Of a DNA stretch of 64,000 bases, positions 9,765 through 52,195 are shown piece by piece. The notes below the pieces were generated by a model that was given only the letters and a program-made list of their open reading frames with translations, was not told the origin of the DNA and did no database searches. Source of the DNA: a bacterium (GTDB taxonomy: Bacteria; Patescibacteriota; Andersenbacteria; UBA10190; CAIZMI01). How positions within the stretch are numbered: the first letter of the stretch is position 1; every line of letters starts with the position of its first letter. The DNA lies in assembly GCA_030647555.1 (NCBI GenBank), contig JAUSJG010000008.1, positions 129,467 to 193,466 on the forward strand, in the 5' to 3' direction. The position numbers and the translations under genes were made by a program.

Positions 9765-12128
9765 TTAGTTGGTGGGCCCGGAAGCGATAAGATCTAAAAC
9801 CAGTGGGCCGTGCTTGATGTTTAGATTTAGATCTATAAAGCCCTTGTTATTGTAACTTAATGTGTCGGCCGGAATAATAATAGATTTGTCGGCGTATTGA
9901 TTATTCTTTTCGGTTTCAAGGTTGGTTATTTCTTGGCCATTGTATTTTATTATCGCAGTTGCGCCGTTATTTTGGAGACGAATTAGCAGTTTTAGCGGTG
10001 TGTTGATTTTTTTCGTATCCGATGGATCCCAAAGTGGTTTAACGTATGTGCCCACGTTTAAGTGAATGGAACCATCGTTACTTTGAATTTCGCGCAGTGA
10101 ACGGTCGTCACGGAACAGGGGGTCGGAAATTCGCGTGGCCGTTACGGAAATCGCGGAGTAGGCTTGGGTGTCTTCGGAATCTCCCAGTTCATTGGCGATC
10201 GTTGCCGGTTGAAGAAGAAAATCGGATTCGTTGTCTTTAGGTTCGTTTGCGTCGGGGGCTTGGAATGAATAGATTGTTGTTTCGGTGTTGGTAAAAGCGG
10301 ATGTTAAATATGGGTTGTACTTGAACGTGTCGGTCGACGCGCCCACCGCTGTGCCGATAAGTTTAATGTTTTGTTTTACTAGCAAGTTTGCGATAATGGG
10401 GTTATTGCCAAGCATAAATATTTTTTCGTAATCAAGGCCTGTTTCGTACAGTTTTTTACGTAATGGCGATTGCTTGGATTCTTTTCCAATGACACCAAAA
10501 TCTCCGCCAATGCGAGTAATCATGTTAAACGGTGAAAGAATGCCCCAGGTTAGACGGCGCCGATTCCAATCATCAATGAGAAAATTTTCTTTTTTATCAG
10601 TGGTTGTTTGCTTAAGAAAAGAAAGCATGTCGAGGGTTTCTGGCGTGAGACTGGCATTTACGCGCGTGGAGTGATTTGTGGCTATCAGTTGCTGGGATGC
10701 GGAGTTGGTTTGAGTCGCAATAGCTATGGCTATTGCGAGAATGATGAATGATGAATGATGATTTATGAATACGGAACTGCCGATTTTGTTTTTACCGATT
10801 GCGATGATTTCCGATAAAAATATTCCGGCGAAAATCGAAAGTGGTAAGCAGGCGTAAAAAAGTGTGCGCGCTGAAGGAATGTCAATAAATAATTTTGAAC
10901 CCTGGCCAAGAAACAGAAAAACGAGACAAAAAGTTGCCAGCAAAACTCGGAAGATATTTTTTCTTTCTTTTGCAAAAATATATGTCACCAATAAACCGAC
11001 TAAACCAAACAGAAAAACGGTTACACCAAATGTGGAAGGATAATCCAACAGTGAAATGGTGAATGGTTTTAGATGCGGATGCAGATTAAAGAGAGCCGAT
11101 AATTTTTTGGTGAGTGGAGAAAAGAAAATAACAATAATTGCCATTGCCAAAAATAAAACAGTAATAATGGCCGAAATTTTTGGATTGTGCTTAATAAGGA
11201 CAAAAATACTTGTGCGGAAAAATATTAAGAGTGTGATTATTAATCCAAGGGCGACAAAGGTGGCGAGAAACGCGGTAAATTGGTGGACGATGGGGAGGAG
11301 AAGCAAGCAAAAAAGTGAAACTGCCAGCGGGGTGATTAGTTTTTTATAGTTATGAGTGATTTGCCATTTACTTATGGTGAATAAGAATAAAAATAACCCT
11401 GTTACTAGTAAGATTTCGCCAATTAAGTTTTGGTAATGATAGCCCGGGTAAAAAACATAACGGAGAAAGCGGATATTGGTGGAAGCAAAAAAGAACACCA
11501 GCAGTTGTGTTTTGGCGTCGGTGCTGATGAGTGCGGTGATGGCGACGCCCAGTGCGGCGAGAATAATTCCGGCCCAAAAAGAAAACCAGGCGGTTGAAAC
11601 AAATTGGTCGCCACCCGTTTTAATTACCACGGCCGTTAATGAGTGTAATCCCGGTGTAAGAAAATCTGAAGGATCGCGATTGAGGTTGAGAGAACTTTGG
11701 TAGTTGGGGAGGCGATTGTTTTGGAGAATATTGTTTGCCCAATAGATTGCTTTTTGAACATCGCCTGTTGGAAGTTGATGATGAACAGTGAAAATCGGCA
11801 GGGTGAGGAATAAAATAATCAGAACATAAAGAAACGCGAATCTTTTTTGGGGCCAAGAGATTGTTTTAATAACGACTAAGGCGTGGCGGCGATAAGGGGG
11901 GACAGCTAAACAAATAATGATTGGCAGTACTGAAAAAATGCCGATGACCGGCACGGAAAGTCCAATATGAACAAAACTGATAACAAATGAATAAAAAATT
12001 GTCCAAGCGATACCCAAACTTCCGGCGATACCAAGCAAGCCGACAAGCGGGGTTTGTTTTCGCGATAAAGCGGTGGCCAATGGCAGGCCTGGGATAAAAG
12101 CGATTAACAAAAGTGAGAGGATGGTCAT
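9765..12128 (-). CDS. large polytopic membrane protein with C-terminal extracytoplasmic domain (putative glycan polymerase/transferase-like)
   Basis: A 787-aa ORF with more than 12 TM segments in the N-terminal two thirds. It contains an embedded AATGATGA/palindrome repeat (see findings). Confidence 0.45.
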   Translation of the reverse strand: MTILSLLLIAFIPGLPLATALSRKQTPLVGLLGIAGSLGIAWTIFYSFVISFVHIGLSVPVIGIFSVLPIIICLAVPPYRRHALVVIKTISWPQKRFAFLYVLIILFLTLPIFTVHHQLPTGDVQKAIYWANNILQNNRLPNYQSSLNLNRDPSDFLTPGLHSLTAVVIKTGGDQFVSTAWFSFWAGIILAALGVAITALISTDAKTQLLVFFFASTNIRFLRYVFYPGYHYQNLIGEILLVTGLFLFLFTISKWQITHNYKKLITPLAVSLFCLLLLPIVHQFTAFLATFVALGLIITLLIFFRTSIFVLIKHNPKISAIITVLFLAMAIIVIFFSPLTKKLSALFNLHPHLKPFTISLLDYPSTFGVTVFLFGLVGLLVTYIFAKERKNIFRVLLATFCLVFLFLGQGSKLFIDIPSARTLFYACLPLSIFAGIFLSEIIAIGKNKIGSSVFINHHSSFIILAIAIAIATQTNSASQQLIATNHSTRVNASLTPETLDMLSFLKQTTTDKKENFLIDDWNRRRLTWGILSPFNMITRIGGDFGVIGKESKQSPLRKKLYETGLDYEKIFMLGNNPIIANLLVKQNIKLIGTAVGASTDTFKYNPYLTSAFTNTETTIYSFQAPDANEPKDNESDFLLQPATIANELGDSEDTQAYSAISVTATRISDPLFRDDRSLREIQSNDGSIHLNVGTYVKPLWDPSDTKKINTPLKLLIRLQNNGATAIIKYNGQEITNLETEKNNQYADKSIIIPADTLSYNNKGFIDLNLNIKHGPLVLDLIASGPTN
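10716..10775. repeat. perfect 26-bp palindrome plus an (AATGATGA)n motif embedded in-frame in a CDS
   Basis: gtcgcaatagctatggctattgcgagaatgatgaatgatgaatgatgatttatgaata. On the minus strand it encodes ...INHHSSFIILAIAIAIA... The same AT-rich motif is intergenic at 19056-19134, 33896-33935 and 54041-54135. Confidence 0.5.
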
Positions 12129-13294
12129 TTGATGAGTCCTTCTATAAGAGAGCTAAACTTAGCGCCAATTGTGTCCCGTGTCCACTGTTTCCAGAGGCCA
12201 TCGGTGGCTTGGGTGAATTTTCGCTTTGCTTCGTCCGTAAGACCGTATTTGATGCATTTTATCAGAGTTTCCGGTTGGTTGGGGTCATAAAGTGTCCAAC
12301 TGTGAATGGATTCAGGCAAAAGAAGTTTTCTGATGCCCACGTCGCCGGTAATGATTGGTGTGCCGGACTTTAGCGCCAACATTGTTCGTGACGATGATTT
12401 TGCCTGGTTGGCAATGGAGTTATCGATTGGATCAATCAGTAGATTGGCCTGACGCGCAAAATCTTCGGAGTTGTTGCTTTGGAAACGACCAAAAAAATGA
12501 ATGCGATTGCTGTTGCTTAGAAGTTTTGCCTGTGCACGAATTTTATCGGCGTCGATTCCGTCACCGGCCAAGATGAGATGTAGTTTTAGATTCCCGATCG
12601 ATAGTTCGTTCCAGGCGTTTAATATTTGATCAACCCGATGACCGGATGAAATTGCTAAGCTGCCTAAATATAAAATTATTTGCGAATCCGCGCCCAGGTC
12701 AAAATACCGTCGCAAATTAATCGATTCATTCTGTGTGGATTCCGGAATAGCGGTTGGAATTAATTCAATGGGTTTGTTGAGGGATATTTTTTTGTATTGT
12801 TCGACCAGGTAAGGTGAGCAAGCGGTTATTAACTGACTTTTTGTGGCGGCTTTTTTGTTGATGTGGTTGAGCCACATTCGTTCCAGTGCATTACTGCGCG
12901 ATGAGTGCCCTTCGTCGTCATCGGAGTCAAGAATTATTGGCGTGGTGATTTTTTTAATGGCGGAAAAATTTTGTGGATGCGCTTTTACCAAAACAATCAA
13001 ATCCGGATTCTGTTTTTGCACAGCATCACGCAAACCTTTTTTTGCCGCTAAATAGCGCAACAGTAATTTAAAAATATTTGGTTTTTTTGCTCCATCTCTA
13101 AAGCTCGGCCCGGCGATGGTTGTGGGGATAAGCGAGCTTTCCGGCGCATCCATTATTTTCCCGAGTGTGATGAGGTTCACTTCGTGTCCTCTTTTTTTAA
13201 GTTCCAGTGCGAGGGGGATTGTGCGGCCGACGATGGTAGAGCTGTTTAATGGCAGCGTCGCGAGAAAAGTAACACGCAAAGGTTTTAAACTCAT
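12125..13294 (-). CDS. glycosyltransferase family 4 (GT-B, group 1)
   Basis: The start was trimmed to MSLKPLRVTFLAT. The ORF track's 60-aa N-terminal extension is Arg-rich and not protein-like. EVNLITLG ... ILYLGSL ... LILAGDG is the GT4 pattern. Confidence 0.6.
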   Translation of the reverse strand: MSLKPLRVTFLATLPLNSSTIVGRTIPLALELKKRGHEVNLITLGKIMDAPESSLIPTTIAGPSFRDGAKKPNIFKLLLRYLAAKKGLRDAVQKQNPDLIVLVKAHPQNFSAIKKITTPIILDSDDDEGHSSRSNALERMWLNHINKKAATKSQLITACSPYLVEQYKKISLNKPIELIPTAIPESTQNESINLRRYFDLGADSQIILYLGSLAISSGHRVDQILNAWNELSIGNLKLHLILAGDGIDADKIRAQAKLLSNSNRIHFFGRFQSNNSEDFARQANLLIDPIDNSIANQAKSSSRTMLALKSGTPIITGDVGIRKLLLPESIHSWTLYDPNQPETLIKCIKYGLTDEAKRKFTQATDGLWKQWTRDTIGAKFSSLIEGLIK

Positions 13295-16624: not shown

Positions 16625-17404
16625 ATGACTATGGAAAAGAATTTAACCTACGAGCTCCAGCAAATGGGATTGGAAAAAAACGAGGCCGTTATTTACATGG
16701 CTTCTTTGGAACTTGGGCCATCGCCAGTACAAAGAATCGCCCAACGCGGAAAAGTCCCGCGCGCGACAACCTATTTAATTTTGGAAGAACTGAAAAAGAA
16801 GGGTTTGGTTGCCACGCACGAGCACGGCAAGAAAACGTATTTTACCGCGCAACATCCATCGCAATTGGAAGGTCTCATGAAATTGCAAGAAAACGAGCTA
16901 GAAATTCGCAAGAAGACGATTGAATCGCTTATTCCTGAATTAGAACAAAGGGGTCAGTTCGCGGAATCAGTACGACCACGCGTTAGGTATTACGAAGGAA
17001 AAGAATCCTTTCCGGCTTTTCGACGTGATTTGTTAAGTAAACGGAAAGATCAGAAGTTGGTGAGAGGAATCGTGGAACACGATAAATTTGAAAAGTTTGT
17101 GGGGAATTTGGGTGAGTTTATCAAGAAGAGGACAAGTGAGGGTGTTTCAAGTCGCAGTATATATGCGTCAGAAACAGTAACTTATCCTGAAAATGATCCG
17201 GAGAAAAAGAAAGAATCACGCAAGATCGATGGCAAAAAATACCCCGTTCCGGCGGACATCAGTATCATTGGAAATTGTGTCGGTTTGATGTCATACAGCG
17301 AGCCGTTCCGGGCGGTAATTATTGAAGATAAGGATATTTCGGAAGCAATGGTTTCGATTTTTGAGTTGGCCTGGAAAGGCGCAGAAGCGGAAAAAGGAAA
17401 GTAG
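16625..17404 (+). CDS. TrmB-family HTH transcriptional regulator
   Basis: LTYELQQMGLEKNEAVIYMASLELGPSPVQRIAQRGKVPRATTYLILEELKKKGLV is the TrmB HTH. TACAAT at 16619-16624 abuts the ATG, so the mRNA may be leaderless from the second ATG at 16631. Confidence 0.7.
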   Translation: MTMEKNLTYELQQMGLEKNEAVIYMASLELGPSPVQRIAQRGKVPRATTYLILEELKKKGLVATHEHGKKTYFTAQHPSQLEGLMKLQENELEIRKKTIESLIPELEQRGQFAESVRPRVRYYEGKESFPAFRRDLLSKRKDQKLVRGIVEHDKFEKFVGNLGEFIKKRTSEGVSSRSIYASETVTYPENDPEKKKESRKIDGKKYPVPADISIIGNCVGLMSYSEPFRAVIIEDKDISEAMVSIFELAWKGAEAEKGK

Positions 17405-17426
17405 AAAAAATTTGTTATTGACGTTT

Positions 17427-17460
17427 ATTAGGGATTATCCTTTAAAGGATAATCCCTAAT
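17427..17460. promoter_or_regulatory. 34-bp perfect palindrome ATTAGGGATTATCCTTTAAAGGATAATCCCTAAT immediately downstream of trmB
   Basis: Perfect dyad with no clear U-tract. It could be a hairpin terminator or a protein-binding operator. Confidence 0.4.
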
Positions 17461-17539
17461 AAAAGGGCCAACAATAGCCAATAATTGTGCGAGCACATTT
17501 TCGGGTGCCATATTTTATGTTTCCAAACCGCCACGGATA

Positions 17540-17567
17540 TTGACAAAATATACAAAAAGAGTACAAT
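17540..17567 (+). promoter_or_regulatory. near-consensus sigma70-type promoter (TTGACA-N16-TACAAT)
   Basis: ttgacaaaatatacaaaaagagtacaat. The downstream ATG encodes only MGS*, so the promoter appears to drive a non-coding transcript. Confidence 0.4.
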
Positions 17568-17576
17568 TATGTTCAT

Positions 17577-18612
17577 CCCGAGTGCTGTTTCGTGTCCCGA
17601 AAGGAGGTGGTGTATGGGTTCATAACCCTTCACGGTGCGTTTCACGCATGGTGAGGGGGAGTAGAAACCCCTCACCCATCCTCAAGGGAGCAGTTACTCG
17701 CGCGATGTGTTGTTTCTCTATTTTTATTCTTGCGCCACTAGCTTCACGGACGACTCCGTGGGGTGATTGTATGGGCAAGAAGAGGAGGTGCTCCGATGTC
17801 CGAATGTCCGCTGTTGTGTTCGTGTTTTGAAGAAAAATATTGTGTGATGTTCGACGGCGCCGCGGCCGACTTGTGACCCCAAAGAAGTTCGGGGGTCGTG
17901 AGGTCGCCTCTTTTTCTTGAGTGCCGATGCTGTGCATCGGGTTGACGTGACAAGGTCCAATTATTAGGGGCCATCACCCTCAAGGGTTTCATTCACAAAT
18001 GGAGATACGATGGAGAATTTCGGGTTAGAGGATTCCCTGAAATTAGCCCCGAGCCGGCGGATCCGGAACTGTTGTTTTGAAAAATTGGTTTTTAGAGAAA
18101 GCGCGATTTTCGTAAATAGCTCCATGTGTAGGGCATATTGCGGGATCGCGGTCCGGCCGACGGCCGGATAGTTGAGGGGAGTTCGGCCAGTCTGGCGTGT
18201 GCATGGGGAGGCGAATATGCCTACTCTGAATCGCGCGCCACGTTTGGACTACTCCCGAAATGCGGAGTCCGCTTTTTCGGCGTTTCGCTGTCCAGGTTTC
18301 CGAGAGCGCTCGGAAATCGTCTGGCTCCAGCGGGGGCTGGAAGAAACGTGCCCTCGAGCCCCACGGCTCGCACTCCGGCTCGTTCTTCCACGGCCCATTT
18401 TCCGGAAGCGGATTCCGCCAAGTTGGGAGTGTCTAGGTTGCAGACCTCCCAAATCCCAGCATCAAGTGGATCTTGCCCACGGTACCAGGGCGCCACTCGC
18501 GGGATCATCGAGAGCCGGTGCGCAATGCACTTGCACCGCCTCTCACCTTTAACCCGGTGTCCTGTCAATCAAGCGTCGACACGCAAGATTGACAGGCCCG
18601 GGCCTTTTTTAT
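17577..18612 (+). ncRNA. candidate large structured non-coding transcript (about 1 kb) between a consensus promoter and a strong intrinsic terminator
   Basis: No ORF longer than 125 aa survives on either strand, and the candidates overlap in all frames. There are many perfect hairpins, for example ggtgagggg-gagtagaaa-cccctcacc, and the CCCTCAAGGG motif occurs twice. GC content is far above the host's. Confidence 0.25.
18556..18612 (+). terminator. compound intrinsic terminator
   Basis: cctgtcaatc-aagcgtcgacacgcaa-gattgacagg is a 10-bp-arm hairpin. It is followed by ggcccgggcc and then ttttttatttg. Confidence 0.5.
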
Positions 18613-18627
18613 TTGCGGAAGTTATTA

Positions 18628-18675
18628 GACCAGGGTTGAACCTTGGACAGGTTTGTCCAAGGTTCAACCCTGGTC
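18628..18675. repeat. perfect palindrome with about 21-bp arms (accagggttgaaccttggaca / tgtccaaggttcaaccctggt)
   Basis: Read directly. It is the longest perfect dyad in the window. Confidence 0.6.
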
Positions 18676-18773
18676 GGCGTATTCCGACACAAAGCGTAAC
18701 GAAAATTATGATTATAAAAATGGCTTGTAAAAGAGCATAAAAGCACACATCGAAAAAGCGTTTGTCACAATGC

Positions 18774-18802
18774 TTGACAAAAAATAAAGGCGGGATTATA
18801 AT
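18774..18802 (+). promoter_or_regulatory. perfect-consensus sigma70 promoter TTGACA-N17-TATAAT
   Basis: ttgacaaaaaataaaggcgggattataat. Confidence 0.45.
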
Positions 18803-18808
18803 ACACCC

Positions 18809-19050
18809 TACTGAATCGACGTCTCCGCCAAGAGTTAGTTTGCTCACTTCACTCACCTCAAATAAATCAATCGTACCGAAGCCGGTTGGTTTAATCACGA
18901 GGAACAACCAAAAAATTGCGTTTAGTAGGAAGAAGGCACGGCCACTTTTTGCGAACTATTCTTTTGTTCGCCTGCCGTTATTGCCACTTTCAAACGACGT
19001 AATCATTGGTTTTGAGTGATGACGGGTTCCGTTCCGTCAGACCTTTTGAC
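18809..19050 (+). ncRNA. candidate small RNA (about 240 nt) from the 18774 promoter to a hairpin plus U-tract
   Basis: No ORF starts downstream of the predicted TSS. tgacgggttccgttccgtcagacctttt at 19019-19050 is terminator-like. Confidence 0.2.
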
Positions 19051-19055
19051 AATTT

Positions 19056-19134
19056 TCCCTTGAATGTTCGACATGATTAATGAATGATGATTTATGATTC
19101 ATGAAGTCGAATATTGAAGGGAAGGCGTGAAAAA
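19056..19134. repeat. MITE-like element: imperfect terminal inverted repeats CCCTTGAATGTTCGAC / GTCGAATATTGAAGGG flanking an AATGATGA-rich core
   Basis: ccttgaatgttcgacatgattaatgaatgatgatttatgattcatgaagtcgaatattgaaggg. Confidence 0.45.
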
Positions 19135-19852
19135 TTTCGCGCTTGAATATCCGTTCCCCTCCTTCGTTAGATCCTTTGTGATGTAGCGAAAGAGGGGAAT
19201 AAGAGTGGACTGATTACATTAGCAACATCGGCAGTGCCGAAGACCAGATAATGCAACCCAAGATCGTTGGGTTCGCTGAAAGGTCGTTGCTAACAAAATC
19301 AGCAAACAAGTTTCTTGTTTGACGATCACCACTTGAGGTTCCCGCCGTTGATTATTTCAACGGTTTCCCTCAAATTTTCGAAACAAACCAATCGGTGACC
19401 GACCCTGGCCTGCCCCGCGTAGCTTTAGCGAAGTGTGGGCGTGCAGGGACGGTCCCCGAGCTTGGAAAATTTGAGGGGAAATCCTATGGCGTAAGGGTGT
19501 GTGCCGGTTTCCGACGGGCTGTGTCCGTGAGAGAAACCGAACCCATGCGTCATTCAGCTAGGGGCAGAAAATGGCCCATCGCTTCACACCGGCCACTACC
19601 GAGTGGACCGAAAAGCAGATCATAACTCTTTGATCTGTGTGTGGGGTGAGCGCTGAAAATTTCCACTGACGAGTGGGGAGAAAGTTGGCTGGTTTGTTTG
19701 GATGGGCGAGCCCTAACTCGCGCCATTTCAACCAGTCGACATCCGGAAGTTAGGGTCCGGAAAGCAGTGATGTAAGAGGTCATTACATGCACACAATTCC
19801 GCGGTCGGCAACGAGGGACGTCCTTGTTGTCGACCGCTTTCCTTCTTAAATT

Positions 19853-19890
19853 ATATTTATATGGTTTTATAAGAGGGCAATTCATGAATT
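19853..19890. repeat. direct-repeat copy 1 of GGGCAATTCATGAATTGCCCCTAC (contains a 20-22 bp perfect palindrome)
   Basis: Shares about 35 nt with the copy at 21444-21480. Confidence 0.6.
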
Positions 19891-20119
19891 GCCCCTACAC
19901 GAAACTACAAATAATATAATTTAAGAAGGGAAGTGTCGTACGAGAAGAGAAATTAGTTTTCTCTTCCGTTGGTCATCAATTCCGTTTTATTTTTAGAAAA
20001 CAGAAGAATTTGTTTCTTCTCGCTTTATGTCCGGCGTTAATGGACTGTTCTTTTGGAGCTCCTCTATAATATCTGGCTCAAACCTCTTAAGGCCGGAGAA
20101 TAAATGAGGAAATTTATAT

Positions 20120-20464
20120 ATGCGAAGTTGGCAAGTATGGATATACGCTAACGATTGGCGACTGCTGGGTTTAGTCGAAGCAGAGAGCAAAGAAGAAGCC
20201 GCGAAAAAGCTCGGTTTTGACCGAGTTCTGCCAGGTGGGCGTCTCTTCAACTCCAATTTTTGCTTTGCACACAAATACCAGCTGAATCCGAAAAAGTGGT
20301 GTCATGACTGGCTTTCTCAGGTTCAAGTGTTTTTGAAGGATCCGCCAACAAGACTCTTGGACGACGAGAGTTTGCATGAAATGTTGGCTGGAGAATTCGA
20401 ATGGATATACGCATTTGGACGTGAAAGTGCAGGTATGCAACCACTCAATTCGGATAAGTGGTAG
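20120..20464 (+). CDS. hypothetical small protein (114 aa)
   Basis: An ORF with balanced composition inside the segment bracketed by the direct repeats. There is no recognisable motif. Confidence 0.3.
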   Translation: MRSWQVWIYANDWRLLGLVEAESKEEAAKKLGFDRVLPGGRLFNSNFCFAHKYQLNPKKWCHDWLSQVQVFLKDPPTRLLDDESLHEMLAGEFEWIYAFGRESAGMQPLNSDKW

Positions 20465-20720
20465 CTCGCCAATCATAATAGCGCTGGAGTTTGCGGAACA
20501 AAAGCAAACTATGCTTTGTCGGAAGAGGCAAATCTTGGCAAAGCATTCCCCGAGTAACAGCGCGAATAAAATCAAGGGGAAGTTAAGCAGTCGCTCAACT
20601 GCTTATGCGCGAATAGAAGAAGGCGCATAAAAAGGAATGAGCAAAGTGTTACACAACGGGCTGAGTCTTGTTTCACAAGTTTCGGCCCAAATTCATTTCA
20701 ATCTTTGGGAATATTTTTAT

Positions 20721-20755
20721 CAGTGACCGACCCAGGCGTACTGGGACGGTCACTG
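20721..20755. promoter_or_regulatory. 15-bp-stem hairpin cagtgaccgacccag-gcgta-ctgggacggtcactg
   Basis: Imperfect dyad about 60 nt upstream of the small TM ORF at 20816. Confidence 0.35.
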
Positions 20756-20815
20756 ATAAATACTATTAAAGATTGGTGTGAATTTACCAGTTTCGAAAAC
20801 CAAAGGGAGATTGTC

Positions 20816-21064
20816 ATGAATATGAATTGCTTCGCCCGGTTTTTCCTGGGCACCCCGCGGCGTTTTCTGGCCAGTGCGATTTTCGCCGTCATTGGGATGG
20901 TGATTGTCCACTTTCAACCGGGGTTGGTGTATCGGTCCGCCGATCGACTGGCGTGCGAGTGCATGCCGGTGATCAAGGCCGTCCTGACCTGCGTCATCGT
21001 CTTAGCCGGCTTTCGGATGATTGTCGCTGGCGGACGTGGTCGCGTCGGAGGCGGACGGCACTGA
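20816..21064 (+). CDS. hypothetical small 2-TM membrane protein (82 aa), GC-rich
   Basis: There is an RBS (aaagggag) 7 nt upstream of the ATG. The C-terminus is Gly/Arg-rich (AGGRGRVGGGRH). Confidence 0.3.
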   Translation: MNMNCFARFFLGTPRRFLASAIFAVIGMVIVHFQPGLVYRSADRLACECMPVIKAVLTCVIVLAGFRMIVAGGRGRVGGGRH

Positions 21065-21232
21065 CCACCGGGCCGGCGGGGCCAGTTCAAACCTATTGCG
21101 ACGGACAACCATAGTTGTCCGTCCTTTTAATTTTGCATAACTATTTTTATATCTCTACGCCCAATTTTTCTTTTATTACTTCTTTGATGCGATAAATATC
21201 GGCTATGATCATTTTTTGTTCTGTTCTTTACA

Positions 21233-21421
21233 TCACCAAAATTTTATAAAACCATCGATTGTGTTCGTTAAATTTCCGAGAATGTTGTCTATGTTCGATA
21301 ACTGCTTTTCAATATTATCTATTCCGGCCGATAAATCATATTTTACTTCCTGAATTTCGTCAGATAGTTTCTGGAATTTTTTATTGAGAAAATAAATGAG
21401 TTTCGCATCCATATCAATCAT
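21233..21421 (-). CDS. hypothetical small coiled-coil protein (62 aa)
   Basis: The AT-rich ORF MIDMDAKLIYFLNKKFQKLSDEIQEVKYDL... Confidence 0.2.
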   Translation of the reverse strand: MIDMDAKLIYFLNKKFQKLSDEIQEVKYDLSAGIDNIEKQLSNIDNILGNLTNTIDGFIKFW

Positions 21422-21443
21422 TATACGCTTGATAGTCCAAGTC

Positions 21444-21480
21444 GTAATTATTTGGGGCAATTCATGAATTGCCCCTACGC
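21444..21480. repeat. direct-repeat copy 2 of GGGGCAATTCATGAATTGCCCCTAC, encoding the last 8 codons and the stop of the GT4 gene
   Basis: On the minus strand the repeat reads ...CELRRGNS*. Confidence 0.6.
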
Positions 21481-22556
21481 AACTCGCAAATTTCGGAAAA
21501 TTTGTCCATGTACTGTTGTGCGATTTTGGGCCATGCGAAGTTTTGCATCGTGAACTCTCTGGCTTTTTTGCCAAATTCTTTTCTTACGTTTTCGTTTTGC
21601 AGAAGCGAATTGATTTTATCGGCAAAGGCATCTGCGTTTTCCGATTCGACAAGAATGCCGTTTTGGTCGTCAATAACCGCATCGGTGATTCCTTCGAGTT
21701 TTGCGGCGATTATTGGTAACTTACAGCTCGCCGCTTCCACTGCGACCAACCCAAAACCCTCGGCGTCATTTTTCACTTCAATGTTGGGCATAATGAAAAG
21801 ATCAGCAGTGTTGTAGAGCAATTTAACTTTTTCTCTTGGTACATCGTGGAGAAAAATTACCTTGTTCTGCTGGTTTGTTTTTTTAATTGCCTGATCAATT
21901 TTTTCTTTTTCTGGACCATTGCCAATGACAACATAAATAATATTTTCGGGTAGTTTGGGTAAAACATTTGTGATGAACCATTCAACACCTTTTCTTTTTA
22001 TCAAGCGACCAACTGTCAATAGTATTCTTTTATTGGTAATTTTGGAACCCAAATATTTTTCCAGATCATCGTGTTTGATGCTTGGTTCATAAAAAACATC
22101 CTTAATTCCCGGGGTTATTACAACGGTGTTGTTTCCGGGAAATTTTTCATTGACCAAACTGGCTACGTAATTACTGATACAAATATAGAGATCGGTACCC
22201 GAAAAAAACTTTTTTAAATACCATTGGTAAATTTTCGATGGATATAAAATATCTAAACCGTGTACTTCTACCGCAACAGGTTTTCTTGTTACTTTTTTTA
22301 TCATCCAACCAATTAAACAAAGCACTGGGTCGCCAATGTGGACTACGTCATAATTTTTTGCAGTGAAAAGTCCCTGAATAGTCGCGGTCACGAAAAAAAT
22401 AGGAAGAAACTTTTTTCCGTATCGATTAGTGATAACCTTTGTTCTTGTTAGTTTTCCAACTTCCGTTGTGATGTCGTAACTTAATTGTTCCATTCCGCCA
22501 CGGATGGGCGGATAGGTGCGCGTGATAAATAGAATAGACGGCGCGTTATTCATCAT
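21462..22556 (-). CDS. glycosyltransferase family 4
   Basis: ILFITRTYPPIRGGMEQLSYDI ... ILLTVGRLIKRKGVEW ... EGFGLVAVEAASCKLPIIA are GT4 motifs. Confidence 0.7.
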   Translation of the reverse strand: MMNNAPSILFITRTYPPIRGGMEQLSYDITTEVGKLTRTKVITNRYGKKFLPIFFVTATIQGLFTAKNYDVVHIGDPVLCLIGWMIKKVTRKPVAVEVHGLDILYPSKIYQWYLKKFFSGTDLYICISNYVASLVNEKFPGNNTVVITPGIKDVFYEPSIKHDDLEKYLGSKITNKRILLTVGRLIKRKGVEWFITNVLPKLPENIIYVVIGNGPEKEKIDQAIKKTNQQNKVIFLHDVPREKVKLLYNTADLFIMPNIEVKNDAEGFGLVAVEAASCKLPIIAAKLEGITDAVIDDQNGILVESENADAFADKINSLLQNENVRKEFGKKAREFTMQNFAWPKIAQQYMDKFSEICELRRGNS

Positions 22557-22563
22557 TCGTCAA

Positions 22564-23547
22564 TCATTCTTCATTATTCTTTTTATATGTTTCTTTGCGA
22601 GCGTGGTAAAGCAGTTCTTCAATTAGAATGCGTTGACGGCGTAGCATATCAGCCAAGAGCGCGATAGTCATCAAAAAAGTTCCCAACAAAATAAAGACGG
22701 CGGAAACAGTTACCAATGAACGGTAGGGAAAAGTTTGGCCTGTTTGAAGCCAATGAATCAAAAGAAAAAGTCCGATAAGAAAACCCGTACCACCGGTTAG
22801 TGTAGCCAATACACCAAAAACCTGAAACGGGCTGGAGTCGCGCAGTGTGCGAAAAAAAATGGCGAGCCAGCGAACACCATAAATGAAAATGTTTTTAGCA
22901 ACCCGCGATTTGCCGACGGCGCGTTCGCCGCGCACTTCCAAACGAATTTCTTGAATGCGTAGTCCCTTTAGAACCGCGTCCAGAATTACTTCGTGGGTGT
23001 ATGTAAAACTGCTGAAAAGCGTAAGGCGTAAAGCCGCTTCACGACTGTATGAACGATAACCGCAGGAGACGTCGGTGAAATTTCGATCGACGGCGCGGTT
23101 AACGATGTATCGCACAATTCGGTTACCGATTTTTTTTAGCATTGGCATTTTTGGATATCTTTTTGGATCGGAAAAACGGGTGCAGGTGACAATGTCGGAT
23201 GCGCCGCTCAAGATTGGCGCGATTAGTTGCGGAATGTCGCCGGGATTGAATTGGCCGTCGCTATCGATGTGGACAATAATGTCGGCTTGCCTACGAAGCG
23301 CTTCTTGAATGCCGGTACGGAAAGCGGCGCCCACACCGCGGTTTTGGCCGTGAGAAACAACTGTCGCACCGAGTGAGCGTGATTTTGAAGCAGTGTCATC
23401 GGTTGATCCGTCATCAATCACGATAATTTCTTGTTCGTTAAAGCCGGCGATTGCTTTGGGAATTCCGTTGATGACTTGGGAAATCGTTGCCGTCTCGTTC
23501 AGGGCGGGAATAATGACGCAGAGCTTTTTTTGTTGGGTGGATAGCAT
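22564..23547 (-). CDS. GT2 polyprenol-phosphate glycosyltransferase (DPM1/GtrB-like) with C-terminal TM helices
   Basis: LCVIIPALNETATISQVINGI ... IIVIDDGSTDDT ... IVHIDSDGQ contains DXD, and the C-terminus has 2 TM helices. Confidence 0.7.
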   Translation of the reverse strand: MLSTQQKKLCVIIPALNETATISQVINGIPKAIAGFNEQEIIVIDDGSTDDTASKSRSLGATVVSHGQNRGVGAAFRTGIQEALRRQADIIVHIDSDGQFNPGDIPQLIAPILSGASDIVTCTRFSDPKRYPKMPMLKKIGNRIVRYIVNRAVDRNFTDVSCGYRSYSREAALRLTLFSSFTYTHEVILDAVLKGLRIQEIRLEVRGERAVGKSRVAKNIFIYGVRWLAIFFRTLRDSSPFQVFGVLATLTGGTGFLIGLFLLIHWLQTGQTFPYRSLVTVSAVFILLGTFLMTIALLADMLRRQRILIEELLYHARKETYKKNNEE

Positions 23548-30368: not shown

Positions 30369-30452
30369 AAGGTCGGACTGCCGAGCGGTCCGACCTTGAT
30401 TGGTGGTAATTAAACGTCCAATGCGGGTCGGACCGCTAAGCAGTCCGACCCG
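30369..30452. repeat. double-hairpin dispersed element (GTCGGAC...GTCCGAC x2), copy 2
   Basis: aaggtcggactgccgagcggtccgaccttgattggtgg...ccaatgcgggtcggaccgctaagcagtccgacccgg. Confidence 0.55.
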
Positions 30453-32518: not shown

Positions 32519-33915
32519 GCGGACTGATAGAAATAGTTCTCATTGGTGTCGGTGCGCTGGCGCTCTTTTCGGCATTATTTTTTAGTGCGCAGGCGGGAAT
32601 ATTTATTTTGGGTGGTGCTTGGGCGGTGGCTTTATCTTGGAAATATCCTAAACAGGCATTTTGGATATTGTTGTTTTTTGTACCGCTTTTGCCGTTATTG
32701 AAAATAACGCAAACTTTGAGCGCGGTAACACCACTGAAAGATTTTATCATCGCTGCGTTATTTGTTCGGGTTGTCATTTATCCGATTTATCTTAAGCGGG
32801 ACCCGTATCGTCGTAATAATGTGCTATTGCCAATAATTTTTCTTGTTTGTTATGCGGTGCTGGCCGTATTGCGCGCGGATAGTCACGTGCTTGGTATACT
32901 TCGTTTAAGAGATATATTACTTTATATTCCAATGCTTTGGATTGGTCGCGCAATGATTGTGACGCGGAAGGATTTTACTGATTTTCTGAAAATTATTTTC
33001 GGTAGTGTGGGGCTGGTTTTGGTTCTTGCGTTGGCGCAATTTATATTTTTTACAGATGGAATGGTGTTGCGGTTTGATCCTTCGGACAGTTCCTGGATTA
33101 CCAGAGCATCAAGTGTTTTGGCACACCCAAATATTTTAGGCAGTTATTTGTTGTGTTTCCTGCCACTTACATTTTCTTTTTCGTTATTTAAATTTAAACC
33201 TGGCTGGAAATCAAAGATTGTGCTTTTGTTAAGTATTTTTGGCTTGATTACGGTTTACGCCACATATTCGCGTGGCGTTTGGATCGCCTTTATTGTCGGG
33301 GCTTTGTCTGCGGGCGTTTTGGTTGTATATCAAAAACGACAGTTATTTTATAAAGTTGTGTTGCCGATAATTTTAGTCGTTCTAATTTTGTTTCTTGCGA
33401 TTCCCCGTACGCGCAATCTCTTACGGACAGTTGTGGATCCAACATACGCCAGCAATCAGGCTCGAATTGGAATTATGGCATCATTGGTTTCAGAAATGTC
33501 TAATGTAGACGCGCTTTTGGGGCGTGGTTTAGGTGATATTTTTGAAAGTACAGATCGAAACATCAATATCTCAATTTCCGATATTGTTGCTAATAATGTG
33601 CAGAGTGTACAAACAGCAAAGGCACAGACTTTTGTGGATGATGCCGTGTTCAAGACCTGGATTGAAACAGGACTGTTTGGTCTTTTGATTGTCGGTTGGT
33701 TGGTTTGGAACATTGTCACAAATTCCTGGCGGTTAAATGTTGGGGGAAAATCGGTGGAAGAAAAATATTTTGGCATAGCGTTGTTTGCGACAACTGTTGG
33801 TTTGTTTGTATTGTCATTTTTTCTAGATATTCCGGAAACTTTTCCGGTGGCATTGTATTGGTGGACGTTGGTGGGAGTGGGGCAGGCGGTGCCGTGCTTA
33901 AAGAATGATGAATAA
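32482..33915 (+). CDS. O-antigen ligase / Wzy-like polymerase family membrane protein
   Basis: A polytopic ORF with ...VYATYSRGVWIAFIVGAL... in a periplasmic loop, typical of the O-antigen-ligase family. The 5' 37 nt overlap the previous gene, so the true start is uncertain. Confidence 0.5.
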   Translation: MAQAVGKKFNKVGGLIEIVLIGVGALALFSALFFSAQAGIFILGGAWAVALSWKYPKQAFWILLFFVPLLPLLKITQTLSAVTPLKDFIIAALFVRVVIYPIYLKRDPYRRNNVLLPIIFLVCYAVLAVLRADSHVLGILRLRDILLYIPMLWIGRAMIVTRKDFTDFLKIIFGSVGLVLVLALAQFIFFTDGMVLRFDPSDSSWITRASSVLAHPNILGSYLLCFLPLTFSFSLFKFKPGWKSKIVLLLSIFGLITVYATYSRGVWIAFIVGALSAGVLVVYQKRQLFYKVVLPIILVVLILFLAIPRTRNLLRTVVDPTYASNQARIGIMASLVSEMSNVDALLGRGLGDIFESTDRNINISISDIVANNVQSVQTAKAQTFVDDAVFKTWIETGLFGLLIVGWLVWNIVTNSWRLNVGGKSVEEKYFGIALFATTVGLFVLSFFLDIPETFPVALYWWTLVGVGQAVPCLKNDE

Positions 33916-33935
33916 TGATTATTGAATGATGAATA
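33896..33935. repeat. AATGATGA-family AT-rich repeat (gaatgatgaataatgattattgaatgatgaatactcg) at a gene end
   Basis: It overlaps the stop codon of the ligase-like gene (…LKNDE*). Confidence 0.35.
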
Positions 33936-39225: not shown

Positions 39226-39330
39226 ATTTTCAATTTTCAATTTTCAATTTTCAAAAAATTATCAATTACATAATTATCAATTACATAATTATCAATTACA
39301 TAATTATCAATAACATAATTATCAATAACG
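39226..39330. repeat. AT-rich tandem repeats: (TTTTCAA)x4 then (ATTACATAATTATCA)x3 plus (ATAACATAATTATCA)x2
   Basis: Read directly. An inverted TTGATAATT / AATTATCAA partner lies at 39338-39385. Confidence 0.6.
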
Positions 39331-39426
39331 ACGTCATTTGATAATTTATGATTTGAAAATTAATTGAAAATTGGTCATTGATAATTGAAATTTATTGTAT
39401 TCGGTGATTCAGTTCTATGTGCTATT

Positions 39427-43083: not shown

Positions 43084-43150
43084 ATCGCGTCTCGGTCTTC
43101 CTCCCATCAATGCCTAGTACACCGGCCTAAATTTATTTATTGCCGTTTTG
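43084..43150 (+). promoter_or_regulatory. conserved upstream element copy 1: inverted repeat CAATGCCTAGTACA...TGTACGAGGCATTG around CCGGCCTAAATTTATTTATTGCCG
   Basis: It is about 62 bp and nearly identical to 53081-53146. Confidence 0.55.
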
Positions 43151-43163
43151 TTGTACGAGGCAT

Positions 43164-43205
43164 TGACGGGAAAGTAGTTTTTTAGAGTCGACCAAACCGT
43201 CGCCA
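43164..43205 (+). promoter_or_regulatory. conserved 5'UTR copy 1 (GAGTCGACCAAACCGTCGCCATGGCGGGGAGGTCTTAACAA) with an embedded strong SD
   Basis: The same 42-mer, with 1-2 mismatches, lies at 52141-52182. Confidence 0.55.
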
Positions 43206-43239
43206 TGGCGGGGAGGTCTTAACAATTAGGAGAACAATC

Positions 43240-43551
43240 ATGGCAGGAACGTACAACGTGATCGTCGATGCCGCCGCCCCCGCCACGACCTTGAAAATCG
43301 GTTTTGGCAGTCCGGCCCAGAACGACCAGATCGTGAAGGATGCGGTCGCGGCCGTGAAGGCGCTCGGCTTGACCGGCGGGAAGCTGGTCAAGTTGAACGG
43401 GCCGGCTTCGTTGCCGGTGGCCGTCGCCATCGGGCACGAGGTGGCCCACCTGTTCGGGGCCGTCGCGGTGTTCGACCCGAAACTCGGGAACAAATACGTC
43501 GTGGTGGTGAGCCACGACCCCGATTTCGCGGTCGGTAGCGTCATCGAGTAG
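43240..43551 (+). CDS. island gene A: 103-aa protein resembling a degenerate (P-loop-less) copy of the NK-like domain of genes B and C
   Basis: LVKLNGPASLPVAVAIGHEVAHLFG aligns positionally with VILCGPPRSGKSCMRQGLKDAIKII of B. VVVVSHDPDFAVGSV resembles LVVVAEIHSDYNGAEDTV of B. The comparison was made by eye. Confidence 0.4.
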   Translation: MAGTYNVIVDAAAPATTLKIGFGSPAQNDQIVKDAVAAVKALGLTGGKLVKLNGPASLPVAVAIGHEVAHLFGAVAVFDPKLGNKYVVVVSHDPDFAVGSVIE

Positions 43552-43711
43552 GGTTCTTTCAGGCCAAATCATGGTTGATGCGGCCTAAATCGTACACGAA
43601 GGAGGTCCGAGTATGACGCTCGACCTCCTTCCTTTTCTTCAGAGCGCGACAAACGTTGTCGTGCGCTCAAGTAAAAGATTTTAAACCCGCCGCGGCGGGA
43701 AGGAGAAAATC

Positions 43712-44293
43712 ATGAAAGTCATACTTTGTGGTCCCCCGCGGAGCGGGAAGTCCTGCATGAGGCAGGGCTTAAAGGATGCGATTAAGATTATTCCGGGTGC
43801 ACCGTATCCGTATGTTATCACGGCGTGCCCGGACGGTGAGGGGGCTTGGTTCCAGGAAACTGTGAACCAGGACCCTGATTTGGCCAAGAGGTGCAAGGAT
43901 GCATACAAGGCCAAGTTCACGCCGGAATTTGTGCAGAGGATAGCGGATTCTGTGCAAAATTGCTCGCTACCGCTCACGCTCGTGGATATCGGTGGCATCC
44001 CGAGCGCGGAGAACGAGGCGATTTGCGCCTCGGCCACCCACGCCATTTTGTTGGCAGGCGACCTCGGCCGTTTGCCCGAGTGGCACGCGTTTTGCAAAAA
44101 ACTCGGGCTCGTTGTTGTTGCCGAGATCCACTCGGACTACAATGGGGCCGAGGACACCGTCCCCCAACTCGGCGAGGACGGCATCTATCGCGGTTCGGTT
44201 CACCATCTTGAACGAGGTGAACAGACCGCCGCCCGCCCGACGATTCGGGCGCTGGCCGAGATTCTCGTCGGGATGGTTACCGACAAGAATTGA
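43712..44293 (+). CDS. island gene B: small P-loop NTPase, nucleoside/polynucleotide-kinase-like (193 aa)
   Basis: Walker A MKVILCGPPRSGKS lies at the extreme N-terminus. The LTLVDIGG block is Walker-B-like. An RBS (ggaaggag) precedes the start. Confidence 0.55.
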   Translation: MKVILCGPPRSGKSCMRQGLKDAIKIIPGAPYPYVITACPDGEGAWFQETVNQDPDLAKRCKDAYKAKFTPEFVQRIADSVQNCSLPLTLVDIGGIPSAENEAICASATHAILLAGDLGRLPEWHAFCKKLGLVVVAEIHSDYNGAEDTVPQLGEDGIYRGSVHHLERGEQTAARPTIRALAEILVGMVTDKN

Positions 44294-44427
44294 TTTCTAA
44301 TCAACCAACGGTTGTGGGTTATCCTGTAAAACCCTCTTCTGATTCGAGAGTGTGTACTCTCGCTGATGACGCCGAAAGGCAGAAATCAGAAACTGAAATC
44401 AAAAAAAATTTTCGCGGAGGAGAACCG

Positions 44428-46122: not shown

Positions 46123-46132
46123 GGAACAAAAA

Positions 46133-46564
46133 ATGAAGACGTATGCAGTGGCAGTGGATGGTGGGCGGACGGGACACGCGGTGGCAACCCTGCGGGCCGA
46201 GATCAACCTCGGTCTGAAAAAGGGCTACGCGGGATTCCTTCAGGAAAAGCAGGAGGTCATTGACTTCCTGAAGGACCTGTACCGCACGGCAGTCGCGGCG
46301 GGACGGAACTACGTCCCGGTCTGCATCCAGCAGACGGAGATCGTCTACGCGTACCAGACTGGCGATGGTCCGGTAGCGGACGCCGAACCGGCATTGACCC
46401 TTTTTTCCGACAAGTCGCCACTTTATGCGGCGGACATGTCGGACGATCAGTGGAAGGCCGCCGTCGAGGAATTGGCAGCCGCGTTGGCTGATCGGTTCCA
46501 ACAGTTCCGGGTGTACGTGTCGTACATCCAAGTGGAGGTGAAGATCCTCCAGCAGGTGAAGTAG
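46133..46564 (+). CDS. island gene D: hypothetical 143-aa protein
   Basis: An RBS (aaggaac) precedes the ATG. MKTYAVAVDGGRTGHAVATL weakly resembles the N-terminus of gene A (MAGTYNVIVDAAAPATT). Confidence 0.4.
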   Translation: MKTYAVAVDGGRTGHAVATLRAEINLGLKKGYAGFLQEKQEVIDFLKDLYRTAVAAGRNYVPVCIQQTEIVYAYQTGDGPVADAEPALTLFSDKSPLYAADMSDDQWKAAVEELAAALADRFQQFRVYVSYIQVEVKILQQVK

Positions 46565-46588
46565 TACTTCTCCTGCGAATCGATCTTC

Positions 46589-46628
46589 GGCAAGTCCACG
46601 CATTGCGCGCGGACTTGCCACTTTTTTA
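46589..46628 (+). terminator. intrinsic terminator ggcaagtccacgcattgcgcgcggacttgcc + ACTTTTTT, followed by a second hairpin gtgttcgcgatgcgcgaacac
   Basis: A 9-bp GC stem followed by a U-tract. Confidence 0.55.
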
Positions 46629-46706
46629 AAGTTTATCAGTGGAAGTGTTCGCGATGCGCGAACACCTGATGGGCTTTTAGAAGTTTTTTTGAAAAGGAGA
46701 CACAGG

Positions 46707-47054
46707 GTGAAAAAAATCCTGTGGATGTCGCGCCACCGGCCGACCGCGAGGCAGATTAATGCCTTGCGCCAGATGCATGGCGCGGACGCGGTGGTGGAAC
46801 AGGAGGACCGTCCGTTTGACGACGCGCGAGAAATCGTGTGCCGGTACAGGCGAGATGGTTACGACGACATGGTGGTCGTCGCTCCGCTTTCAGTAATCGC
46901 GGTTTTGTGCCAGGAAGGCATTAGACCGCTTTGGTCCGAAGCCACCGAGGAAAACGATCCGAGAAAGATCGAATTTCGCGGCGCGCGCGGGCAAGGGTAT
47001 CGTTTCGTAAGGTTCCGCCGCATTAAGTGCGTGCGGGTTGAATTCGAAGAATAA
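46707..47054 (+). CDS. island gene E: 115-aa protein, a possible second degenerate NK-like paralogue
   Basis: There is a GTG start with an RBS (aaaggaga). KKILWMSRHRPTARQINALRQM aligns with KVILCGPPRSGKSCMRQGLKDA, but the GKS is lost. This is by-eye inference. Confidence 0.35.
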   Translation: MKKILWMSRHRPTARQINALRQMHGADAVVEQEDRPFDDAREIVCRYRRDGYDDMVVVAPLSVIAVLCQEGIRPLWSEATEENDPRKIEFRGARGQGYRFVRFRRIKCVRVEFEE

Positions 47055-47064
47055 GGAAAATGAG

Positions 47065-48279: not shown

Positions 48280-48280
48280 G

Positions 48281-49957: not shown

Positions 49958-49981
49958 CAGTAATTCTGCCACCGTTTGGGG

Positions 49982-50014
49982 AGTCCGGTTTTTGACTCCC
50001 CTCTTTTTTCTTCC
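49982..50014 (+). terminator. intrinsic terminator ggggagtccggtttttgactcccc + TCTTTTTTC
   Basis: An 8-bp stem followed by a U-tract. Confidence 0.55.
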
Positions 50015-50076
50015 TTTCCAGCTTCGTGTTGGAAGGAAAGAATTGAAGTAAACACAAAAACAAAAGGAGGCCTACC

Positions 50077-52038: not shown

Positions 52039-52054
52039 TTTCACTGTTCTTTTT

Positions 52055-52090
52055 GGGGTCGTTGTTGGATACAACGACCCCTCTTTTCTC
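52055..52090 (+). terminator. intrinsic terminator ggggtcgttgttggatacaacgacccc + TCTTTTCTC
   Basis: An 11-bp stem. The same hairpin recurs at 52993-53026. Confidence 0.55.
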
Positions 52091-52182: not shown

Positions 52183-52195
52183 CGGGAGAAAAAAC

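Follow-up and report, generated by a model that had tools for sequence, protein, structure and literature searches.

A conserved pair of non-coding transcription units, one of them a candidate large structured RNA, beside a TrmB-family regulator gene in Patescibacteria

Here we describe a gene-poor gap in a 64-kb stretch of bacterial DNA from contig JAUSJG010000008.1 (the whole stretch analysed is called the window, and its sequence is abbreviated win). The gap covers positions 17405-21461, between the stop codon of a TrmB-like regulator gene (17404) and the point where a glycosyltransferase gene ends (21462). It opens with two predicted transcription units on the + strand, unit 1 (~17575-18612) and unit 2 (~18809-19845), each with a near-consensus promoter and a strong intrinsic terminator. 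The pair of conserved non-coding transcription units is real, and we hold it somewhat more probable than not that they are two tandem, independently transcribed non-coding RNA (ncRNA) genes in a conserved chromosomal locus of the candidate phyla radiation (CPR). Unit 2 is a good candidate for a new class of large structured RNA. A preliminary description had proposed, for the segment 17540-19134, large structured ncRNAs with promoters and terminators of their own; the core of that idea stands, best for unit 2, and the unit boundaries do not. Its left border falls inside the gap defined here, and its right border at 19134 cuts unit 2 mid-way, since unit 2 runs on to a 17-bp terminator at 19801-19837. 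The features of the two units are listed below (SD, Shine-Dalgarno sequence; ORF, open reading frame; relatives of the window are coded L003, L004 etc.).

17540-17567, + strand: unit 1 promoter, TTGACA-N16-TACAAT, 11 of 12 consensus matches
17575-17715, + strand: unit 1 5' domain, part 1, with the closing helix P1, which encloses SD1, the mini-ORF and hairpins
17601-17625, + strand: SD1 AAGGAGGTG (17601-17609) and mini-ORF ATG GGT TCA TAA (17614-17625)
17650-17683, + strand: hairpin GGTGAGGGGG/CCCCTCACC, then the anti-SD-like CCCATCCTC; 9 lineages
17783-17876, + strand: SD2 GAGGAGGTG and a second short ORF (17796-17876, 26 codons)
17884-18540, + strand: unit 1 body, GC-rich (57%), nearly unconstrained in sequence, with ordinary folding z
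18561-18612, + strand: unit 1 intrinsic terminator, a nested hairpin with a 16-bp stem, GGCCCGGGCC and T6
18774-18802, + strand: unit 2 promoter, TTGACA-N17-TATAAT, 12 of 12 consensus matches
18809-19245, + strand: unit 2 5' domain, widely conserved part; its core is also in L009, L011, L013 and L017
19016-19151, + strand: unit 2 core, covariance model R1, with an invariant ACCTTTTGACAATTT, helix H3 (19057-19071 with 19107-19121, variable loop) and helix H4 (19123-19131 with 19136-19144)
19154-19199, + strand: hairpin module CCCCUCCUUCG-loop-CGAAAGAGGGG, an anti-SD-like strand paired to an SD-like strand
19236-19800, + strand: unit 2 3' domain, ~20 predicted helices, specific to the clade of win, L003, L004 and L007
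19801-19847, + strand: unit 2 intrinsic terminator, 17-bp stem (19801-19837) and T-rich tail

Syntenic loci were recovered via TrmB homologues of 96% to 41% identity. Removal of identical copies left eight distinct lineages, namely the window, L003, L004, L007, L009, L011, L013 and L017 (=L034), and three more distant lineages with recognisable unit cores (L038, L022 and L031) were added. The TrmB gene is syntenic in all fetched loci, and the order TrmB, unit 1, unit 2, then GT4/GT2/PrsW is found in the eight distinct lineages. In every lineage with a contig of sufficient reach, a stretch of 2-7 kb that is poor in called genes separates TrmB from GT4 and GT2, which PrsW and SpoIID usually accompany. 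MurC is 48-58% identical between genomes that share this chromosomal locus order; its database matches at 35-38% identity are labelled Uhrbacteria, Doudnabacteria, Parcubacteria and 'Patescibacteria group', and two of the locus relatives were deposited as Candidatus Saccharibacteria metagenome-assembled genomes. The locus belongs to a little-sampled clade of Patescibacteria (CPR).

At third codon positions, the TrmB gene of the window differs by 39-54% from those of L003, L004 and L007. Against this divergence, identity to the window is 80% in L004 (18681-19371), 83% in L003 (18682-19071) and 73% in L007 (18702-19338). The 5' domain of unit 2 retains 73-83% identity, and the RNA units are conserved well above neutral. 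Further matches are 19192-19847 (75% identical to L004) and 17409-17868 (77% identical to L003), and with profile searches the 5' parts of unit 1 and unit 2 can be traced to L009, L011 and L013. The homologous segments and the covariation that had been suggested as a check were both found, as synteny in eight lineages and as compensatory changes above controls.

Unit 2 would be transcribed from a perfect consensus promoter, which is kept together with the first nucleotides (..CAGTWCTGAATCGAAG) in all eight lineages, and its length is ~1,040 nt according to the predicted ends. The 5' domain is old, ~330-440 nt long and common to all relatives; it lacks any SD-AUG, yet no other part is as well conserved. 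Pairing was compared with slid controls, in which the 3' partner was moved by 1-3 columns. For the 5' domain (alignment A5, 4 sequences, 123 pairs) the paired share of cells is 96%, where sliding leaves 38-47%, and 11 compensatory pairs compare with 0-3. The core common to the eight lineages has the form AGGCACGGC..GCGRR/YYCGC..GCCG..GCC with an invariant ACYTTTYGACAATTT, H3 and H4. H3 is a long helix, CCCTTGAG..CTGAAGGG, of which the distal part and the loop vary freely, and H4 reads AGCRTGA..TCGYGCT. Over nine core sequences (A12, 24 pairs) 91% of the cells are paired versus 31-47% when slid, and 11/24 pairs are compensatory versus 3-6. The covariation score of the core is 0.433, compared with 0.197 after shuffling, and none of 500 shuffles reached 0.433. 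The covariance model R1 finds L038 (E 1e-7), L022 (0.002) and L031 (0.03), none of which was used in building the model, and each of these matches lies ~720-775 nt past the TrmB stop.

A hairpin with a U-tract at 19021-19060 had been taken for a second terminator, ~240 nt after the promoter at 18774. It lies inside the most conserved core and is not the end of the unit: conservation and covarying helices continue past it for 800 nt, up to the 17-bp terminator, whose stem (helix 20) covaries in L003 and L004. The loop of H3 is formed in the window by one copy (19070-19107) of a dispersed AT-rich repeat, and in L003 it carries an inserted element that resembles a repetitive extragenic palindrome (REP), GATTGCTTCGCC..GGCTCGCAAAGAC; since the loop holds different repeats in the two lineages, it tolerates insertions. 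The AT-rich repeat (ATGAATGATGAATGATGATTTATGA-like) is intergenic and also occurs at 10734-10787, 22547-22582, 33898-33935 and 54041-54125, and the REP-like element is present at 53690-53738 and 54890-54938 in the window, at ~6470-6515 in L003 and at ~12010-12050 in L007.

Downstream of the core lies a hairpin module, CCUCCUUCG-loop-CGAARGAGG. Of the 11 lineages scanned, 7 carry this SD:anti-SD-like module on the + strand, once or twice per locus and in every case inside the TrmB-GT4 gap, and its distal stems covary. Copies are at 12430 and 12640 in L004, 12261 and 12716 in L009, 11992 and 12428 in L013, 12528 and 13365 in L007, and 12557 in L017. Unit 2 of L004 contains a partial tandem duplication (12510-12644 and 12927-13095) that includes a second SD:anti-SD hairpin. 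In L009 (~11990-12300) and L011 (~12000-12320) an insert that looks near-identical in the alignment follows the 5' domain; it may hold a small ORF (..LDRALRKEEAIRKAIAAKRKKS*), in which 3/4 differences are synonymous, and it is absent from L013 and L017.

For the 3' domain of unit 2, ~600 nt long, alignment A13 (4 sequences, 153 pairs) has 87.7% of its cells paired; sliding lowers this to 36-43% and reduces the compensatory pairs from 47 to 9-16. In the more distant loci beyond the window's clade, nhmmer matches to this domain were all non-significant. Within it, at 19473-19494, GAGGGG is followed after 7 nt by ATG GCG TAA (start, one codon, stop); this arrangement is kept in the window, L003 and L004, and in L007 that start codon begins a frame of 26 codons.

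Unit 1 would start from a promoter with 11 of 12 consensus matches. Equivalents were found by the strict pattern in win, L003, L004, L007, L009, L013 and L038, and were read directly off the sequence in L011, L017, L022 and L031. Sites with at least 11/12 matches number 6 in the 64 kb on both strands, versus 1.2 expected from a Markov-1 simulation; besides the two unit promoters, which had been reported correctly before, these are at 23591 (-), 30353 (-), 42337 (+) and 60729 (-). In the predicted closing helix P1 the 5' end of the transcript pairs with ~17686-17706, ~110 nt downstream. The sequences of the P1 arms differ completely between lineages, yet the cognate partner pairs best: over 11 lineages the mean is -25.8 kcal/mol for cognate and -17.9 kcal/mol for non-cognate arms, and 0 of 20,000 permutations reached the observed mean. 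This cognate-arm test was used in place of RNAalifold on the 8-lineage MAFFT alignment of unit 1, in which the arms were misaligned (20 pairs only). For the 5' domain of unit 1, the alignment of the four closest lineages (A15, 67 predicted pairs) has 89.9% of its cells paired, where slid controls have 48-58%; its compensatory pairs number 20, compared with 3-9 in those controls.

Inside P1, 11/11 lineages keep an SD that is perfect or nearly so (AAGGAGG). An ATG follows after 5-8 nt and opens a mini-ORF of 3-6 codons, with 2-5 sense codons between this start and the stop. The encoded peptides are MGS, MGS, MGG, MGG, MGW, MGF, MGGI, MGGI, MGGF, MGGTGG and MPTG, and SD1 is predicted to be paired with a probability of 0.4-0.9. 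The hairpin after the mini-ORF, found in 9 lineages, is written GGTGAGGGG/CCCCTCACC across them. The 5' arm of this hairpin has a second complement in CCCTTCAC (17626-17633), the 8 nt abutting the mini-ORF stop (CCCUUCAC), so that two mutually exclusive folds are possible; the alternative pairing of this arm turns up in the RNAalifold consensus. A second SD and ORF of 3-29 codons occur in nearly all lineages with a poorly conserved peptide sequence, and the 5' part of SD2 pairs with an upstream U-rich strand (predicted helix 7).

The central ~650 nt of unit 1 form a body with 53-59% GC in four lineages. It gave no blastn match between lineages, and win-L003 is the sole pair whose global alignment exceeds shuffles (z 5.4). 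As the body is otherwise unalignable, it is nearly unconstrained in sequence. The term 'hypervariable' was considered for it and dropped; synonymous sites are already 39-54% diverged, and win-L003 aligns at z 5.4. The folding z of the body is ~-0.4 to -2.3. The terminator behind it, already noted as a nested hairpin ~1 kb after the first promoter, is present at 18561-18612; its position is kept in L003, and analogous terminators are found in L009, L013, L022, L031 and L038. The region had first drawn attention as a GC-rich block dense in stems. The GC content is indeed 51.5% for 18001-19000 versus ~43-45% in the flanks. Stems are above chance in unit 2, where the mean folding z in 150-nt windows is -5.5 (whole gap -3.65, outside the gap -0.87), and the centre of unit 1 (17884-18540), the GC-rich part of the block, folds ordinarily and is the least constrained part. 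In unit 2, G-U pairs make up 11-14% of the cells, which fits the + strand. In both units, helices are kept by compensatory changes above controls.

Neither unit has the codon periodicity of a gene, and both are non-coding. Mismatches of the window to L003, L004 and L007 by codon position 1/2/3 are 20/2/100, 34/15/121 and 71/35/140 in TrmB, the positive control (100/122 mismatches to L003 at third positions). The corresponding values are 18/14/17, 48/36/43 and 51/52/48 in the 5' domain of unit 1, and 94/91/85, 47/58/59 and 144/137/138 in unit 2. Indels in both units are mostly not multiples of three, and in unit 2 only ~9/46 are. The earlier judgement that the segment has no believable ORF is upheld. 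A 200-aa ORF at 18138-18740, accepted by a gene caller, was rejected, having no protein-level counterpart in L003 beyond the terminator stretch (an L003 ORF in the equivalent position does not match it), and tblastx between lineages gave no match on the unit 1 bodies. When TGA is read as sense, stop-free runs extend up to 244 codons, and coding is still excluded by the absent periodicity.

The gene immediately upstream, and three palindromic features at the borders of the units, are the following.

16625-17404, + strand: gene of a TrmB-family winged-helix regulator (259 aa), always directly upstream of the RNA units
17424-17463, + strand: perfect 20+20-nt palindrome after the TrmB stop, terminator-like, at which Logan contigs break
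18628-18675, no strand: perfect 22-bp hairpin between the units, unconserved in relatives
18763-18779, + strand: palindrome TGTCA-N7-TGACA, overlapping the -35 box of the unit 2 promoter

The N-terminus of the regulator matches Pfam TrmB (PF01978) at 1.9e-13, above the cut-off, and the family profile matches TrmB and TrmBL2 structures in the PDB over residues 4-101; its C-terminal domain matches no family. The exact palindrome TGTCA-N7-TGACA is present at the unit 2 promoter of all lineages and at the unit 1 promoter of L007, L009, L011, L013, L017 and L038, and nowhere else within the ~20-kb loci. Allowing up to one mismatch, the window holds only two matches, one at the unit 2 promoter and one at 19035-19051 inside the unit 2 core. 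The position of the palindrome over the -35 box suggests that both promoters are controlled by the adjacent TrmB-like protein, which from its adjacency and co-conservation would be a repressor.

The neighbouring genes encode SIMPL, a ThyX-like 579-aa protein, the TrmB-family regulator, GT4, GT2, PrsW, SpoIID, MurG and MurC. The preliminary description had likened the segment to RNAs that are often embedded in mobile DNA, and such a setting does not hold here: the locus is chromosomal and not mobile, with the same chromosomal neighbours throughout. No phage or plasmid matched the entire gap by blastn, neither the unit 2 core nor the sequences flanking ORF 20120 hit any viral contig, and no tRNA or tmRNA was found in the 64-kb window. 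When only the GGTGAGGG..CCCTCACC hairpin was used as query on viral contigs, at least 120 generic palindromes came back, and the scan was not informative. DNA of the locus is also present in the Logan assembly of SRR13727527, whose contigs stop exactly at the long palindromes 17424-17463 and 20716-20760. Contigs of several relatives also end just after TrmB, and the region breaks assemblies.

The next ORF after unit 2, at 20120-20464, encodes 114 aa of no family, is not conserved among relatives and has a promoter-like site at 20041. Its flanks 20007-20110 and 20512-20610 are 90% and 81% identical to L031 12665-12769 and 13131-13231, and the central part of the 90% flank is nearly identical. 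The L031 TrmB is only 41% identical, and the ORF between its matching flanks is unrelated to 20120-20464. The arrangement resembles a cassette in which an exchangeable ORF is framed by a conserved promoter/leader and by 3' hairpins. At 20816-21064 lies a gene for a small membrane protein of 82 aa (MNMNCFARFFLGTPRRF..), which L004, L007, L011 and L017 also keep. The window lacks further small genes, such as those for an 83-85-aa MACYC.. protein and for a protein of 135-149 aa, that only subsets of the lineages carry in this gap. Two identical copies of a 24-nt palindromic element, GGGCAATTCATGAATTGCCCCTAC, are found in the gap, one (19875-19898) within a 97-nt AT-rich inverted repeat (19837-19933) and the other (21455-21478) at the GT4 stop codon. 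It also follows TrmB in L003 (4657-4692) and is probably a dispersed terminator or REP-like element.

Elsewhere in the window, murG and murC are separated by a 10-kb GC-rich island (43104-53146, 54-60% versus ~43%) with a 68-nt direct repeat on either side (43104-43171 and 53080-53146). The ORFs of the island match AAA_18/Cas_csx3, bpMoxR and VWA domains, its mean folding z is -2.8, and by gene content it looks like a horizontally acquired conflict system of the MoxR-VWA type. Two further repeats were noted: an inverted one at 30371-30450 (z -8.7) and, at 39257-39331, a 15-nt unit repeated in tandem about five times.

Several observations weigh against two stand-alone ncRNA genes. The body of unit 1 is without sequence constraint and not unusually structured. 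Because SD and ORF elements are conserved in unit 1, ribosomes probably touch it, and 'non-coding' is not strict there. The alignments comprise only 4-11 lineages; since most structures were predicted from (RNAalifold), or model-fitted to, the same alignments in which pairs were counted, the support is inflated, and the shuffle controls ignore phylogeny. The secondary structures may be regarded as supported in outline, not in detail. Transcript ends and expression itself are predictions, and the invariant TTGACAATTT in unit 2 could be conserved at the DNA level. Furthermore, in L038, L031 and L022 (the last truncated) an SD and a homologous 84-87-aa gene stand directly behind the 5' domain of unit 2, ~35-50 nt past it, so this domain may be, or may once have been, a cis-acting leader. 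The encoded protein has no Pfam family and no database relatives. A conserved protein frame had been named earlier as the observation to look for against an RNA; in the window's clade the ncRNA proposal survives this comparison, and it is the distant relatives that carry such a gene. A pseudogene of the 84-87-aa gene was considered for the window's clade and rejected, as tblastn finds no trace of it.

The strongest rival, which we rate as unlikely, is that the conserved 5' domains are cis-acting leaders, riboswitch-like or protein-binding, for the downstream parts of the same transcript; the long 3' parts in the window's clade would then have been added secondarily, and the small genes at 20120-21064 would be reached by read-through. 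The outgroup gene fits this, as do the different sequences that follow the unit 2 5' domain in different clades and the unit 1 SDs, which are predicted to be sequestered as in translational switches. In the window and the three closest lineages, however, the 17-bp terminator ends unit 2 before any ORF, and the 600-nt 3' domain is itself conserved with 47 compensatory pairs. ORF 20120, which is unconserved in relatives, has its own promoter-like site, unit 1 is closed by a strong terminator directly before an independent consensus promoter, and no riboswitch family matches. A less probable alternative still, to which we give little credence, takes the units for micropeptide mRNAs (MGS, a 26-aa Cys-rich peptide and possibly MA at 19486-19494) whose RNA structure serves only stability or translational control. 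It would account for a perfect SD, AUG and in-frame stop in 11 lineages and for the second SD and ORF in nearly all of them. The peptides, though, have 3-6 residues or are unconserved in sequence or length (3-29 codons), the 5' domain lacks codon periodicity, ~90% of each unit is outside any conserved ORF, and the best conserved part, the unit 2 5' domain, is without SD-AUG.

Finally, the region might be decayed or foreign DNA (a pseudogene remnant or the scar of a mobile element) or an element acting as DNA, such as an origin, with no function as RNA. The GC-rich, unconstrained body of unit 1, the dispersed repeats inserted into loops and the frequent breaks in assemblies would suit this reading, which we nevertheless consider very improbable: conservation far exceeds that of synonymous sites, and compensatory changes and G-U pairs point to selection on RNA, so that covariation largely refutes it. 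The empty tblastx and tblastn searches, the stable synteny and the missing phage, plasmid and viral matches also speak against it, as does the cumulative GC skew, which climbs steadily without a sign change.

Two tandem ncRNA genes remain our preferred reading, and a possible mechanism may be sketched. The TrmB-like protein would bind TGTCA-N7-TGACA over the -35 boxes and repress both RNAs. The 5' domain of unit 1 would present two SDs, each with a tiny ORF and partly sequestered in helices, and ribosome loading on the mini-ORF would switch its fold between CCCUUCAC:GUGAGGGG and GGUGAGGGGG:CCCCUCACC. Unit 2 would work in trans as a folded RNA or ribonucleoprotein scaffold, not as a message. 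A more far-reaching proposal, possible in our view and rather doubtful as a whole, is that unit 2 represents a new ~1-kb ornate RNA class of a deep Patescibacteria clade and forms with unit 1 a module of two RNAs that is under TrmB control and engages the translation machinery; unit 1 would serve, via its SD and mini-ORFs, as a ribosome-loading sensor or decoy, and unit 2 as a scaffold with SD:anti-SD-like hairpins. If this were true, the module would be a regulatory RNA system without a described counterpart, in hosts with few known regulators.

Bacterial ncRNAs of ~1 kb with conserved complex folds are very rare, and OLE, GOLLD, ROOL and raiA each opened new biology; to our knowledge no ornate ncRNA of this size has been described from the CPR. 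CPR genomes are tiny and have little room for idle DNA. Here ~2.3 kb are devoted to two RNA units that are kept across genomes whose housekeeping proteins are ~50-60% identical. The locus offers predicted transcript ends, a candidate operator and a universal 3-6-codon mini-ORF, and the unit 2 core motif can seed metagenome-wide searches with covariance models. Should the units be only clade-specific leaders, the result would still be a useful annotation of a 4-kb 'empty' region filled with spurious ORF calls.

A kinship with GOLLD, ROOL and OLE had been suggested, and the searches do not bear it out. Rfam 15 gave no match at gathering thresholds in the whole window, including OLE (RF01071), GOLLD (RF01998), ROOL (RF03087), raiA (RF03072) and HEARO (RF02033). 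With E up to 5 over 17300-21600, only chance-level eukaryotic microRNA hairpin models appeared, at 17-27 bits versus gathering thresholds of 65-140, and literature searches returned no description of such RNAs in CPR bacteria. OLE RNA and unit 2 are nevertheless alike as lineage-restricted, multi-helix bacterial RNAs of more than 600 nt, with strongly conserved single-stranded stretches between covarying helices and variable hairpins that are tolerated. They differ in that OLE belongs to the phylum Bacillota, whereas the relatives of the unit 2 host are Patescibacteria, and in that no covariance-model match connects them. OLE sits in an operon with oapA-type genes, whereas unit 2 stands alone with its own promoter and terminator beside a TrmB-type regulator, and at ~1,040 nt unit 2 is longer. 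GOLLD and ROOL share with the units their size class and ornate predicted structure; they are often found in prophages near tRNA genes, whereas here there is no tRNA in 64 kb and no similarity to phages, plasmids or viral contigs, and the chromosomal synteny is conserved.

By analogy, unit 1 may be compared with leader-peptide attenuators and minigenes (the trp and erm leaders, the two-codon lambda bar minigenes), which likewise have a strong SD and a very short ORF. The mini-ORF stop that abuts a segment with the potential for two exclusive hairpins, and the SD that would be sequestered by an anti-SD strand, are attenuator-like in the same sense. Unlike attenuators, unit 1 has no structural gene, its nearest intrinsic terminator is ~1 kb downstream, and its ORF of 2-5 sense codons contains no run of regulatory codons. 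With TrmB/TrmBL2 repressors the system shares the winged-helix N-terminus of the regulator and a palindrome over the -35 box of two adjacent promoters. The TrmB proteins that have been characterised are archaeal, sense sugars and regulate protein-coding operons, whereas here the presumed targets would be two RNA genes of a CPR bacterium.

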